From IMG/VR virus record IMGVR_UViG_2531839477_000014: a DNA stretch of 36,374 nt, one strand, 5' to 3'. Under the pieces are notes generated by a model. It was not told the DNA's origin. It was given only the letters and a program-made list of their open reading frames with translations, and did no database searches. This document shows positions 1,459-6,126 of the stretch, one piece after another (the first letter of the stretch is position 1; every line of letters starts with the position of its first letter). The DNA is from a virus. Lineage: Duplodnaviria > Heunggongvirae > Uroviricota > Caudoviricetes. The position numbers were made by a program, and so were the translations under genes.

Positions 1459-2622
1459 TTACACATCATTAGTACCTTCCTTATTTTTTGACTGGGACAA
1501 ATTTGGGACCGATGGGTTCAGGATCGAGTCTATTTGCCGTGCGTGTTCGGTAAGGTGATTAGGTGCAAGGTGAGCATATCGACGAACCATTTCGATAGAC
1601 TCCCAGCCTCCCATTTCCTGTAACACTGACAACGGGACTCCGGCTTGAACCAGCCAACTTGCCCAGGTGTGTCTCAAGTCGTGAAATCTGAAATCATCAA
1701 TACCAGCCCGTCTCAGCGCCGCTTTCCAGGCTGTGTTTGCGTCATACCGCATCTTCCTGACTGTTGGCGCTTTCGTTCCGTCTGGTTTGGTACAGCTTTC
1801 CTTGTACACAAATACCCAACGGTGATGATTCCCGATTTGTTTTTTCAATACGCGACATGCAGTATCATTCAGCGCAACGCCAATTGCGCGGTTTGATTTA
1901 CTCTCTTCCGGGTTTATCCATGCCACCCGGCGCTGCATATCTATTTGTTGCCATTCAAGGTTGATGATGTTCGAGCGTCTTAGGCCTGTTGCCAGTGCAA
2001 ATTCAACAACAGACTTTAATGGCTCCGGACATTCATCAATCAGCCTTTGTGCTTCATGGGGCTCCAGCCAGCGGATCCGTTTATTCTTTGGTTGGGGCAC
2101 TTTAATAATTGGTGCCTTATCCAGCATTTTCCATTCACGCTCTGCGGCTCTTAGTAGGGCCTTTATAAATGAAAGATGCGTAGCCTTCGTTGCAACGGAC
2201 GCTGGTTTTGGCGTGTATTCTGGAACAGGTTTCCCTTTTTTTCTGCATGCTTCTGCCCTGAGTTTCCAGTTTTCCTCATGACGCCGGTTCGTCATTTTCT
2301 GCATTGCTGAATAAATTTTTGATTCAGTAATGTCTCTTAGTTGCATTCCTGCGAAATGTTGAAGCCAGAATCCGATCCGGCTTTTGTCATCGTCCAGTGA
2401 TTTTTTATGTGCTTTCTCTTCAAGCCACCTGACACACGCTTCCTCGAACGTTATATCAGGTATTTCACCAAGTTTGCTGACCCGCCATGCTTCAGCCTTT
2501 AGCTTGTCATGGAGTTCTGTCGCCTGCCTTTTGTCCTTTGTTCCAAGAGACTGTTTAAATCTTTTACCGTTCGGCAATGTGAAACTGGCGTACCATATTT
2601 CACCTCTGCGGAAGAGTGACAT
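1459..2622 (-). CDS. int: tyrosine site-specific integrase, P22/SfV-type (387 aa)
   Basis: [27 protein letters not shown]... with C-terminal catalytic region ([39 protein letters not shown]); adjacent to thrW, the known target of P22-family integrases. Confidence 0.95.
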
Positions 2623-3516: not shown

Positions 3517-4043
3517 TTGCGTAACTCCGATAACTCGTTAAAGCGTTCCATAAACATCCCGTAGGCATGGCCCGGTGCCAGTGGAATCACGTTGAACATC
3601 TCTGTTGCCGGGATACCTTCCAGTACAGGCCAGAAAGAGCCATCATCAAGCCCGAGATCGCGGCGTTCGGTTGCCAGCATGATGAGATCGGCATATTTCA
3701 CGGGCGTACTCATAACCGGGGGTAACCCGTATTTCTCACGGATTACGGCGTCTATTTTTTCTTCCATTTGTTTATAGTCAGGAAGAAGGCGTTTCAGTGG
3801 TGCGGGAATGTCCTGGCAATACGCTTCTGTTGCATCATGCATTAACGCTTCAAAAGCAAATTCCTGCGGCACCAGCTGGCTGCAAAGCACCGCATGTTGG
3901 GCGACACTGTAGAAGTGTGAAAGATGTCCTGCAAAGCGACAGATATTTGAAAGGGAAACCGCGATATCGTTAATAACGATGTCGTCTTTATTTATCCTGT
4001 CATAATAAAAATGCTTCCCGGAAAAAGTTTTAATAAATGACAT
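3507..4043 (-). CDS. HD-domain phosphohydrolase (YfbR-like 5'-deoxynucleotidase family)
   Basis: H...HD metal-binding motifs (HFYSVAQHAV ... LMHDATEAY); start set to ATG 4043 with GGAGA Shine-Dalgarno rather than the upstream GTG at 4070. Confidence 0.7.
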   Translation of the reverse strand: MSFIKTFSGKHFYYDRINKDDIVINDIAVSLSNICRFAGHLSHFYSVAQHAVLCSQLVPQEFAFEALMHDATEAYCQDIPAPLKRLLPDYKQMEEKIDAVIREKYGLPPVMSTPVKYADLIMLATERRDLGLDDGSFWPVLEGIPATEMFNVIPLAPGHAYGMFMERFNELSELRKCA

Positions 4044-4556
4044 TTTGTTCTCCACGTATATGCGCTGCACCGCGCTGAATTCGGGTAAAAGGAAGCCCTC
4101 ACCGTCCGGCGATTATTGAGTCAATTACATTTCCATAAATGCCCCCGTAGGGGCGGTTAGTTTCTCCACAAAACAGAGAAGAACACCTGCGGTGGCAGCC
4201 GCCCGGATGGATTGGGTTATGAGCCCGTCGTCCGGTGATGCTCTTCTCTGTTTTGTAAAAAGGACGGTACCAGCCGGAAGCAAGGGTACAAGCTGGTACC
4301 GCCAGGACTACACACAGCATAAAGTTGTGGTGCCGGGTGCCTCCCGGTGCCTGGCGAAGGTTGCACACCAGGCGGGTGGGTATCCACAGAAGGTCGACTG
4401 TCAGCCTCAACCTTAACCCGCGTGCGCTGAGCCGCATTCACCACAACGCTAAGGATTCTCTTTGGTTGAAAATACTTAGCTGTTATGTGCCTGTCTTTTC
4501 ACCACTTCAGGCTCGGTGGTATCCTTTTAAGCCCGTATACATAAAAGGAAAATCAA

Positions 4557-4802
4557 ATGACTTTTGATGAAAAAGAACTTGATAATGCAATTAATAAAAT
4601 CATCGTAACGTCGCTCTTTTCCTGTCTCAGCGACACTCAGCAGAAACAGTTCTACGAATCGGCTTTCAACATGATCGAGCGTTGTTGTTTCTGCGATGCC
4701 GACGAGTTACCTGAAAAAATCAGGAAACAGTTGGCTGATGCTCTTCGAGTGCGACTTTCTGACCAATTTTCTGAAATGTGCTCTCCGAATTTGGACAAAT
4801 AG
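4557..4802 (+). CDS. hypothetical small acidic protein, 81 aa
   Basis: ATG preceded by AAGGAA Shine-Dalgarno at 6 nt spacing; convergent with, and overlapping by 83 bp, the minus-strand ORF 4720..4995. Confidence 0.45.
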   Translation: MTFDEKELDNAINKIIVTSLFSCLSDTQQKQFYESAFNMIERCCFCDADELPEKIRKQLADALRVRLSDQFSEMCSPNLDK

Positions 4803-4995
4803 AAAAAGGCCATTTCCATTCAGGGTCTGATGGAAATACTTCAGCCTGTTCCAAAGCACGGCGTAAAGAGAACACAACTCCAGCCATAATCTGATGTTTC
4901 CCATTGGTCCAGCTATCGCCGCTCTGATCTACAGGGGCGGCTATGTCGTATGACCAAACGACTTCACAGTTATTGTTTAAAATCTGGACTTTCAT
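4720..4995 (-). CDS. hypothetical protein, first gene downstream of predicted PL (91 aa)
   Basis: ATG at 4995 with AGGTG Shine-Dalgarno 6 nt upstream; sits where lambda has N and HK022 has nun; no Arg-rich motif, so not an obvious N homolog. Confidence 0.45.
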   Translation of the reverse strand: MKVQILNNNCEVVWSYDIAAPVDQSGDSWTNGKHQIMAGVVFSLRRALEQAEVFPSDPEWKWPFSICPNSESTFQKIGQKVALEEHQPTVS

Positions 4996-5111
4996 TTCAT
5001 ACACCTGCTTTAACATGAGTGCCTAGTGGCACAACATGACTCAACGAATCATCCTGGACTTCATATGCCCCAGGCGGCTACTTCGTGGGCGTCCTGCCTG
5101 TTCGTTATCTT

Positions 5112-5201: not shown

Positions 5202-5828
5202 TTAGAGTTCGTATTGAACTCCTTTGACTACACCAATGATAAGGCAATTACCATTGATAGGGATGTTGGGATACCGAGGATTTAATGGCACTAAAAACTT
5301 TTGAGGGCCATCGATGACTAATTTTTTTACTGTAGCTTCGTTTGTTCCATCAAGTCGAGCGATGACTATTTTTCCATGACGAGGTTCTGCATCTGGATCT
5401 ACAATCACTGTTGCGCCTTCTGGTATTGTTGGGAGGCCATTAGGGTTAGTCATGGAGTCACCTTTAACCTCTAATGCAAATGAGTTATCACCAATCTTTA
5501 ATGATGTATCTACCCACTTGTCCACTTCACTAAACACTTCTGCTGCCCTGCACTCAGTAAACTGCCCAGCCTGAACCCACGATATTACAGGAACTCTGCG
5601 CATGTTTGTGACGAGTTTGCCTTCAAACTCAGCACCATAAAGAATGTAATCTATTGACGTATTGAAGAACTTCGCTAATTTCGAAAGTGCCTCCCCACCA
5701 GGGGTATTGATGTCTTTCTCCCAGTACCCCACAGCAACATCGCTTACTCCACAAAATTTACCCAATTCTTTCTGGGACGTTCCGGTAACTCTTCTCAGAG
5801 CTTTTATACGCTGACCAACCGTTTCCAT
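5202..5828 (-). CDS. CI-like prophage repressor (N-terminal XRE-type HTH + C-terminal S24 LexA-like peptidase domain)
   Basis: HTH segment QRIKALRRVTGTSQKELGKFCGVSDVAVGYWE; C-terminal GDSM serine motif and downstream lysine typical of self-cleaving S24 repressors; divergent from cro. Confidence 0.9.
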   Translation of the reverse strand: METVGQRIKALRRVTGTSQKELGKFCGVSDVAVGYWEKDINTPGGEALSKLAKFFNTSIDYILYGAEFEGKLVTNMRRVPVISWVQAGQFTECRAAEVFSEVDKWVDTSLKIGDNSFALEVKGDSMTNPNGLPTIPEGATVIVDPDAEPRHGKIVIARLDGTNEATVKKLVIDGPQKFLVPLNPRYPNIPINGNCLIIGVVKGVQYEL

Positions 5829-5925: not shown

Positions 5926-6126
5926 ATGACAACTGACGATATCGAAAGCTACTTCGGCAGTATTGAGAAAGTTGCTGCTTTTTTCGGCATAACAACTGAA
6001 GCCGTTTATCAGTGGCGAAACCGTCCGGGCCAGTTAATTCCAAAAGGACGTGCAGCAGAAGCTGCATATAGAACTTGCGGACGGTTGCCATTTAAACCTG
6101 AGCTTTATGAAAAATCTAATGGATAA
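5926..6126 (+). CDS. Cro-like DNA-binding protein (66 aa)
   Basis: Small basic protein transcribed divergently from the repressor and directly downstream of predicted PR; YdaS/Cro-like HTH region. Confidence 0.7.
   Translation: MTTDDIESYFGSIEKVAAFFGITTEAVYQWRNRPGQLIPKGRAAEAAYRTCGRLPFKPELYEKSNG

Follow-up and report, generated by a model that had tools for sequence, protein, structure and literature searches.

We analysed a stretch of 36,374 nucleotides (nt), hereafter the window, from the IMG/VR virus record IMGVR_UViG_2531839477_000014, an SfV/SfII-like prophage whose insertion site adjoins tRNA-Thr downstream of proA. We consider it probable, at roughly 70%, that positions 4469-4141 of the minus strand hold a composite non-coding RNA locus of a DicF/STnc100-type small RNA (sRNA), organised like the dicF locus of the Qin prophage in E. 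coli K-12. The locus sits within the leftward (PL-type) early operon, where the minus strand is the direction of leftward transcription. From 5′ to 3′ it comprises a pseudoknotted domain of STnc100 type, an unpaired putative seed, a hairpin of intrinsic-terminator type with its U-run and, directly behind the U-run, a three-way-junction RNA that we designated module A. Comparison with related prophages showed this anatomy, its conservation and covariation, and the homology of its layout to that of the dicF locus.

The G+C content was 0.53-0.585 over 4100-4500 and 0.41-0.46 in the adjacent intervals on both sides, which bears out an earlier sequence-only reading that had called the segment GC-rich and had described nested inverted repeats in it; both repeats were located at the positions it gave. 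The arms of the longer one (4168-4192 and 4232-4256) are 25 nt long and show 84% complementarity; their outer 15 bp form a perfect stem, inside which lies the inner CCGGA/UCCGG stem (4235-4231/4207-4203 on the minus strand). Those of the shorter one (4265-4274 and 4292-4301) pair at 10 of 10 positions. RNA folding, which that reading had recommended, showed the segment with the long repeat to be far more stable than shuffled sequences: the minus-strand fold of 4160-4266 reached −51.2 kcal/mol against −26.3 ± 2.9 for shuffles (z = −8.5), and z was −7.4 for 4120-4262, with none of 200 shuffles as good in either case. Read on the plus strand, the mismatched positions of the 25-nt repeat are A-C; only on the minus strand do they become G-U pairs. 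Together with the orientation of the STnc100 match and the U-runs described below, these G-U pairs indicate that the minus strand is probably the transcribed one, and all coordinates below refer to it unless stated otherwise.

At gathering thresholds, an Rfam search of the whole window returned tRNA-Thr alone. With relaxed thresholds, the STnc100 model (RF02076) matched the minus strand at 4254-4469 over its full length, model positions 1-206 of 206, with 41.4 bits and an E value of 1.6e-7 in a 701-nt search or 8.1e-6 for the whole window. The sequence-only reading had found no matching RNA family and had proposed this Rfam/Infernal scan; the result amends its statement, the segment being a diverged relative of STnc100 and its 3′ part one of DicF (RF00039).

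The 5′ leader UCAACCAAAGAGAAUCCUUAGCG (4447-4469) starts where the Rfam STnc100 model starts, and its part nearest to the closing helix P1, ..CUCU.A.CGUUGUGG, is conserved in ST64B, sal3, mEp460 and phiES15. The domain that follows spans about 120 nt (4446-4325) and is supported by the Rfam match and by an architecture, P1-AAU-P2-P3-CGCGG-P4-P5, that it shares with 70 distinct variants. P1, formed by UUGUGGUG (4446-4439) and CACCACAA (4332-4325), closes the domain; behind its 5′ strand come the AAU junction, the P2 region (4435-4417, a hairpin), P3 (4406-4373, a variable insert), the P4 hairpin (4372-4350), which CGCGG precedes in the family architecture, and P5 (CCGGG-AGGCA-CCCGG), followed by the 3′ strand of P1. 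The P5 hairpin and the P1 3′ strand make up an invariant 22-nt core, CACCGGGAGGCACCCGGCACCA (4349-4328), which occurs exactly in at least 120 IMG/VR contigs. Most of the core-bearing contigs share nothing else alignable with the window, and in nearly all core matches GGUGAA lies 61-109 nt upstream of the core; the window has GGUGAAU 93 nt upstream. The P1-closed multi-helix core of STnc100, UGGUGAAU ... CACCGGGAGGCACCCGGCACCA, is thereby present in a spacing class that is also seen among the 70 variants. Variants were gathered by exact-motif scans, which by ascertainment makes the inner P1 and the P5 pairs invariant. Covariation is seen at the outer P1 pairs (AU 15/GC 13 at one, CG 14/UA 7/UG 5 at the other), and 98.4% of the P1 cells were paired against at most 46% with slid partners.

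Within this domain, AAGGUUG (4414-4408), just 3′ of P2, pairs with CAACCUU (4363-4357) in the loop of P4 to form a pseudoknot. In phiES15 the pair reads AAGGCUG/CAGCCUU, a compensated change, and other family members have AUCAGC/GCUGGU, CCAGUC/GACUGG, CUGGUGU/ACACCGG or GCCAGGUCG/UGACCUGGC. The registers of P2, P4 and the pseudoknot vary by subtype, and pair counts for them on the MAFFT alignment were dropped in favour of an alignment-free test that compared matched loops with loops swapped between variants. The mean helix was 6.26 bp for matched and 4.21 bp for swapped loops; none of 2000 permutations attained the matched mean, and 22 distinct helices were represented. Parsing relied on our own script, by which a few variants were parsed wrongly. 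No pseudoknot is marked in the structure line that Rfam gives for STnc100. The conservation of the core, and likewise that of the tRNA-like arm of module A described below, suggests a protein or some other factor as the binding partner of each.

Downstream of P1 lies a single-stranded GU-rich linker, the putative seed CUUUAUGCUGUGUGUAGUCCU (4324-4304), which aligns with the 5′ part of DicF. Its UGCUGUGUG(U/A)AGUC portion is kept in ST64B, sal3, phiES15 and several IMG/VR lineages, in which the terminator hairpins are unrelated in sequence, and a conserved seed in front of differing terminators is the pattern expected of an sRNA seed. No site complementary to the seed was found inside the window. 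The linker runs into a 12-bp hairpin of intrinsic-terminator type, GGCGGUACCAGC...GCUGGUACCGUC (4303-4263), whose core is the 10-bp stem of the sequence-only reading, and then into the U-run of the terminator tail (CCUUUUU after the hairpin; 4262-4257). As in STnc100, the Rho-independent-type terminator follows a short linker, and cmscan aligned it to the terminator of that family; in nearly every family member, a hairpin and a U-run come 25-50 variable nt after the core.

Seed and hairpin together align with DicF over CUG.GUG..GU..UGGCGGUA(U/C)CAG.UU.UAC, and the likeness to the dicF locus extends to its surroundings. Both lie in a repressor-controlled early operon, downstream of a leftward promoter and upstream of early accessory genes, and both consist of three parts, namely a 5′ domain closed by P1, a seed that is unpaired, and a UGGCGGUA(U/C)CAG... 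hairpin ending in a U-tail. K-12 DicF itself, which scores 76.7 bits with the Rfam model, is preceded by a P1-closed structured domain, GUUGUGGCAAC...GCUGCAAC (locus L266, about 2254-2366). In K-12, two DicF species have been reported to arise from the dicBp operon transcript, with no internal promoter found: RNase III generates the 5′ end of one, of 190 nt, and RNase E produces the other, of 53 nt (bioRxiv 10.1101/2023.04.14.536235). By our count on the K-12 sequence, 190 nt corresponds to the structured domain plus DicF, a layout equal to that of window positions 4469-4257.

K-12 also carries a domain of the window's own type beside dicF. The dicF-dicB spacer contains an unannotated STnc100-like domain (NC_000913 1649446-1649586; L266 2447-2587) scoring 34.1 bits (E = 9.7e-6), with the pseudoknot CAGUUAA/UUAACUG and a covarying P5, CCUGG/CCAGG. 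Conversely, other prophages (L137, L145, L146, L148 and L154) carry the domain that precedes K-12 DicF, with an identity judged by eye at about 90%, in front of seeds, terminators and module A of the window type. This arrangement points to 5′ domains, seeds and terminators as exchangeable modules. Unlike K-12 dicF, the window has a 5′ domain of another type in front of its seed, and K-12 lacks module A after the terminator. The DicF seed pairs with the mRNAs of ftsZ, xylR, pykA and manX; that of the window differs from it, and targeting of ftsZ is therefore not to be assumed.

STnc100 and its relatives PasD and EcOnc27/sRNA103 are sRNAs that prophages of E. coli and Salmonella encode. The window element resembles this group in its full-length model match, the identical 22-nt core, the P1/P4/P5 layout, the UGGUGAAU junction, the linker, the 3′ terminator, its prophage location and its length of about 200 nt. 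It differs from STnc100 in P2 (GCGGCUCAGCGCACGC in the window, CCCCCUGUGCGGAGGGG in STnc100) and in its seed, in being followed by module A and in lying in the early-left operon rather than in the late region near Q and stx. The pseudoknot of the window is absent from the Rfam structure line, and the RNAalifold type of consensus used in the PasD preprint cannot display pseudoknots. Expressed, Hfq-associated transcripts of about 160-210 nt are a trait of the family and are known from other copies. In EDL933, RNA-seq reads cover eleven STnc100 copies, one of which also showed up on a northern blot (PMC5331693); the copies listed in the EDL933 non-coding RNA tables lie elsewhere, and no entry there could be mapped to the window locus. 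The Hfq-bound sRNA EcOnc27/sRNA103 partly overlaps an STnc100 copy downstream of stx2B (PMC12711010), and PasD, reportedly related to STnc100 in structure, was detected among Hfq-bound RNAs by RIL-seq (bioRxiv 10.64898/2026.05.13.724894). Two further settings of the domain were seen. Four IMG/VR loci (L023, L040, L054 and L074) have two STnc100 cores in tandem, 484 nt apart on one strand. The P1-like plasmid prophages RCS47, SJ46 and JL22 carry a domain about 71% identical to that of the window in the ban operon, between upl and a downstream lipoprotein gene and among tRNA genes (RCS47: L006 2501-2629); in the ban operon of phage P1 just about 32 nt match, and the "dicF-like region" annotated for P1 is located some 1.2 kb further upstream within that operon.

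Module A (4262-4160) begins directly after the hairpin, at the terminator U-run. Its basal helix of 25-30 bp (4256-4237 with 4187-4168) is extended by pairing of the U-run with GGAGAA (4167-4160) and carries two hairpins: hairpin 1 (4235-4203), CCGGA-C-GA-C-GGG-CUCAUAA-CCC-AA-UC-CA-UCCGG, and hairpin 2 (4202-4189), whose length varies among relatives. The tip of hairpin 1, GGGCUCAUAACCC (4226-4214), consists of three G-C pairs and the loop CUCAUAA (GGG-CUCAUAA-CCC) and is identical over 13 nt to the anticodon stem-loop of E. coli initiator tRNA-fMet, whose sequence we confirmed at 100% in all 5426 E. coli genomes. The tip forms invariant alignment columns, and the arm has the 7-nt loop, the U33 and the purine at position 37 of a tRNA anticodon arm; ST64B and sal3 have U at position 37.

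Covariation across homologues, another analysis that the sequence-only reading had proposed, was found for both helices. Among 23 distinct variants of module A, 95.5% of cells were paired against 37-48% for slid partners, and nine pairs had changed on both sides, for example GC 12/CG 11, AU 19/GC 4 and CG 16/AU 4. None of 500 shuffles attained the covariation score, and G-U/U-G pairs occurred at several positions. The motif was present in at least 120 viral contigs of IMG/VR and, with full flanks, in 23 genomes of a data set with one genome per species. These belong to Escherichia, Shigella, Citrobacter, Enterobacter, Kosakonia, Mixta, Leclercia, Phytobacter, Pseudescherichia, Raoultella, Pseudocitrobacter, Erwinia, Klebsiella and Buttiauxella, with one assembly labelled Chryseobacterium. 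Of 114 distinct contexts of module A, 104 have a T-run in front of it, in keeping with a preceding terminator. Five motif matches outside Enterobacterales were set aside as chance 21-mers without flanking similarity, about 4 being expected in 596 billion bases by our own estimate, and K-12 CPS-53 was found to lack module A. Downstream of module A, a small G+C hairpin, GCCCCUACGGGGGC (4154-4141), ends the locus; at the equivalent place in relatives, a hairpin of different sequence directly precedes the ribosome-binding site of the gene that follows.

No Rfam family matched 4160-4262, with no credible hit there at relaxed thresholds. A tRNA gene at 4160-4266 was rejected by ARAGORN in its default, mitochondrial and mammalian-mitochondrial modes and by the Rfam tRNA model, and ARAGORN at relaxed thresholds returned only junk calls on module A. 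Among tRNA mimics are the anticodon-arm mimic of the thrS operator and, in bacterial Y RNA (YrlA), a domain that is tRNA-like. Like these, hairpin 1 copies an anticodon stem-loop, here that of the initiator tRNA with CAU; unlike a tRNA, module A has no D arm or T loop, and its "acceptor" in the window is a 25-30-bp helix without CCA. Searched over 3950-4650 with a limit of E 10, the YrlA model gave no match to module A. A further comparison is with the tRNAs by which phages counter anticodon nucleases (PMC11464382).

A short-stem (type II) version of module A comes closer to a tRNA. It was found in Klebsiella and Raoultella prophages (L132 1503-1585; also L133, L142, L144, L157, L159, L162 and L259), with an acceptor-like stem of 7 bp and a 3′ (A/G)CCA, and it keeps the CAU "anticodon" arm, the second hairpin and the three-way layout. 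It lies within a tRNA array downstream of Q, directly 3′ of tRNA-Asn or tRNA-Arg genes, and is followed by a linker and a terminator. ARAGORN and Rfam did not recognise this version either; the YrlA model did not match it, and a weak hit of 20.7 bits at L132 1388-1452 falls on real tRNA genes.

The basal helix also invites comparison with RNase III hairpins such as lambda sib, the N leader and the T7 R sites, as a near-perfect helix of at least 22 bp between units of a polycistronic early transcript. Its conserved branched apex is unusual among known RNase III sites, and any cleavage here is hypothetical. A helix of 25 bp is predicted and covaries; a substrate of RNase III would have about two turns of uninterrupted RNA helix and be cleaved.

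By analogy with DicF and with STnc100/PasD, transcripts initiated mainly at PL, or at a weak nearby promoter, would end at the terminator near 4257 and give a trans-acting sRNA of Hfq type, about 190-215 nt long. A cut by RNase E between domain and seed may shorten it to a seed-plus-terminator form of about 65 nt, and the seed would base-pair with mRNAs. More tentatively, antiterminated read-through after induction could allow the long helix with the U-tract to form and RNase III to cut it, which would release the sRNA and provide the yfdR-xis-int mRNA with a structured 5′ end. Among the options listed by the sequence-only reading, an sRNA and a processing or terminator cluster fit the locus best.

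Several points weigh against this proposal. The STnc100 match, at 41.4 bits, misses the gathering score of 47; the Rfam DicF model reaches 15.9 bits (E = 1.2) at 4262-4316 where gathering requires 48, and the seed UGCUGUGUGUAGUC differs from the UUUCUGGUGACGUUUGG of DicF. No sigma-70 promoter on the minus strand here passed the promoter scan, which is why we place transcription mainly at PL; the best candidate by eye (−35 AAGACA at 4497-4492, −10 TATTTT at 4474-4469) has 8 of 12 matches. A simple terminator scan did not list the terminator at 4303-4257, probably because its 17-nt loop exceeds the 3-8 nt limit of the scan. One basal-stem pair of module A (21-114) is mismatched in 16 of the 23 variants, and RNase III cleavage of the long helix is pure conjecture. 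Furthermore, a mere scaffold of an sRNA would not usually have a pseudoknot and so conserved a core, and the K-12 spacer domain sits in the dicB 5′ untranslated region without a terminator after it, so that the domain may act in cis.

We then weighed whether the segment is, or once was, a protein-coding gene, which we regard as highly improbable. Stop-free open reading frames (ORFs) of 74-112 codons exist in four frames, including the 112-aa frame 4099-4437 on the minus strand and 4192-4416 on the plus strand, and the description of the segment as ORF-poor is therefore correct as to coding signature and not as to mechanical ORFs. Parts of the region have been annotated as SfII_35 (4099-4437, minus strand), mEp460_036 and sal3_00049, and PGAP places a "frameshifted hypothetical protein" there; ORF 4192-4416 of the plus strand matches phrog_3651 (function unknown) at E = 3.4e-49, on the antisense strand and as the only PHROG match. 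These annotations disagree on strand and frame, SfV, ST64B and 4F5 annotate nothing, and no ORF of the segment matched Pfam or NCBIfam; in our view the phrog_3651 match reflects spurious annotated ORFs that are conserved as DNA. Several frames lack stop codons throughout the homologues, which we ascribe to the high G+C content. Substitutions relative to ST64B are spread evenly over the codon positions (19/22/17 for 4192-4416 on the plus strand and 18/23/20 for 4099-4437 on the minus strand), and neither sal3 nor a second minus-strand ORF showed a third-position excess (ST64B and sal3 are about 77% identical to the window). Indels measure 1, 5, 8 and 9 nt, module A variants range from 107 to 134 nt through varied inserts in hairpin 2, and the variation tracks base-pairing. 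On these tests of phase, indels and families, a coding or decayed gene was rejected, and with it the suggestion of a decayed-gene remnant; the frames that had been dismissed as nonsense carry no coding signature in any case. The view that the segment is a structured RNA or cis-acting element rather than coding DNA is thus upheld by the covariation, the G-U pairs confined to the minus strand, the lack of codon phase and the sub-threshold full-length STnc100 match.

The main alternative, conceivable though unlikely, is that the 5′ domain and terminator are a cis control device, either a put-like processive antiterminator or a riboswitch-like attenuator with a pseudoknotted core that binds a ligand or protein. 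Such a device would govern whether polymerase continues into yfdR-xis-int, and the "sRNA" of about 200 nt would be a mere by-product of termination. An invariant core with a pseudoknot and junction nucleotides is indeed closer to an aptamer or a polymerase-binding RNA than to the scaffold of an sRNA; nearly all members have a terminator 25-50 nt further downstream; the elements always occur in long read-through operons (PL; late, downstream of Q and stx2; P1 ban); the K-12 copy in the dicB 5′ untranslated region comes directly after the DicF terminator, and no N-like protein is evident downstream of PL in the window. As with HK022 put, this would be a cis-encoded structured RNA of the early operons in a lambdoid phage without an obvious N protein. 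The put RNAs, however, are about 70 nt long with two stem-loops (PMC9378689), and direct comparison of 4100-4500 with HK022 putL and putR showed no likeness in sequence or structure, so that the put-like option of the sequence-only reading found no support here. Whereas HK022 putL lies directly downstream of its promoter and putR about 270 nt downstream of the PR start site, the segment is at least 650 nt downstream of the PL-like promoter, and the window has a separate put-like candidate at 5104-5041. Inspection revealed no alternative, antiterminator pairing that the subfamilies have in common, terminated family members accumulate and bind Hfq, which would be unexpected after an efficient antiterminator, and 5′ domains are swapped between lineages while seed and terminator stay. 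A retron, ribozyme or riboswitch identity was discarded, with no support in Rfam and no conserved antiterminator pairing by inspection. A still less likely explanation concerns module A, which might have no RNA function of its own and be the relic of a tRNA-Met-like gene, or else a DNA-level palindrome, a recombination joint or a repeat resembling a miniature inverted-repeat transposable element. The 13-nt identity to the tRNA-fMet anticodon arm, the short-stem version with its (A/G)CCA behind real tRNA genes in an array, and the mosaicism of lambdoid genomes with conserved joints would agree with such an origin, but a relic would hardly show nine compensatory pairs, with G-U/U-G combinations workable in the minus-strand RNA only, nor a three-way architecture kept in types I and II despite their differing stems, loop and junction nucleotides invariant across at least 14 genera, and a constant position and orientation right after the terminator U-run. 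As a speculative and unlikely extension, module A could be a new class of prophage RNA that mimics the initiator-tRNA anticodon arm and captures or decoys a factor recognising tRNA-fMet, and the pseudoknotted core, which STnc100, PasD and the domains beside DicF share, could be a protein- or ligand-binding module that provides a second function independent of pairing; candidate partners of module A would then be a VapC-type anticodon nuclease, another tRNA-targeting defence, methionyl-tRNA synthetase, or the 30S P site with initiation factor 3.

Judged at the level of sequence, the sRNA locus combines a domain of STnc100 type with a 3′ part like that of DicF and a different seed, in an early-left operon, and is related to both families while passing neither Rfam threshold. 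Its pseudoknot, and module A with the tRNA-fMet arm, are found neither in Rfam nor in the literature compared here. DicF, STnc100/EcOnc27 beside stx2 and the Pas sRNAs have largely separate literatures, which are now linked, as all three fit one modular design in which a structured 5′ domain and a seed, both exchangeable, are combined with a terminator. What is new is a widespread covarying RNA of Enterobacterales prophages, outside Rfam, with an initiator-tRNA anticodon arm. At least part of the segment is carried by 2788 of the 5426 complete E. coli genomes searched, or half, where it is either unannotated or annotated as a bogus hypothetical protein or pseudogene. If functional, the locus would bear on the timing of early-operon read-through in prophages and on the maturation of prophage sRNAs, and possibly on interference with tRNA-directed host functions.

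In the window, the RNA locus lies between yfdR and the PL-proximal ORFs, as the sequence-only reading had rightly placed it within the leftward early transcript. On one side are, in map order, the integrase gene (1459-2622, minus strand), xis, yfdT, a gene for a phage protein and yfdR, encoding an HD 5′-deoxynucleotidase (3507-4043/4070, minus strand); on the other are the PL-like promoter found by the promoter scan (5148-5120, minus strand), the gene for the LexA-type repressor cI (5202-5828, minus strand) and cro (5926-6126, plus strand). A search of the whole window revealed no second copy of the RNA locus. The yfdP/yfdQ-like genes present in SfV (orf32/orf31), mEp460 and ST64B are missing here (window 4070-4142), and module A is joined nearly directly to yfdR. 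Terminator-like hairpins with T-runs on the plus strand, at 4140-4155 and 4501-4520, flank the RNA locus and could block antisense transcription through it. Beyond it, ORFs 4557-4802 (plus strand, phrog_3311) and 4720-5016 (minus strand, phrog_3195) overlap convergently by 83 nt, and annotators keep one or the other (SfII_36 as against SfV orf33 and PGAP). Immediately downstream of the PL-like promoter, a non-coding block of about 60 nt (about 5104-5041, minus strand) is 84-95% conserved among temperate phages of great diversity, namely SfV/SfII/SfIV, ST64B, Yersinia YeP2/3, Klebsiella, Citrobacter, Pectobacterium ZF40 and mEp237. The block has GAAC(A/G)G and CAGGAUGA in common with HK022 putL and putR, and is a better candidate for a put-like element than 4100-4500.

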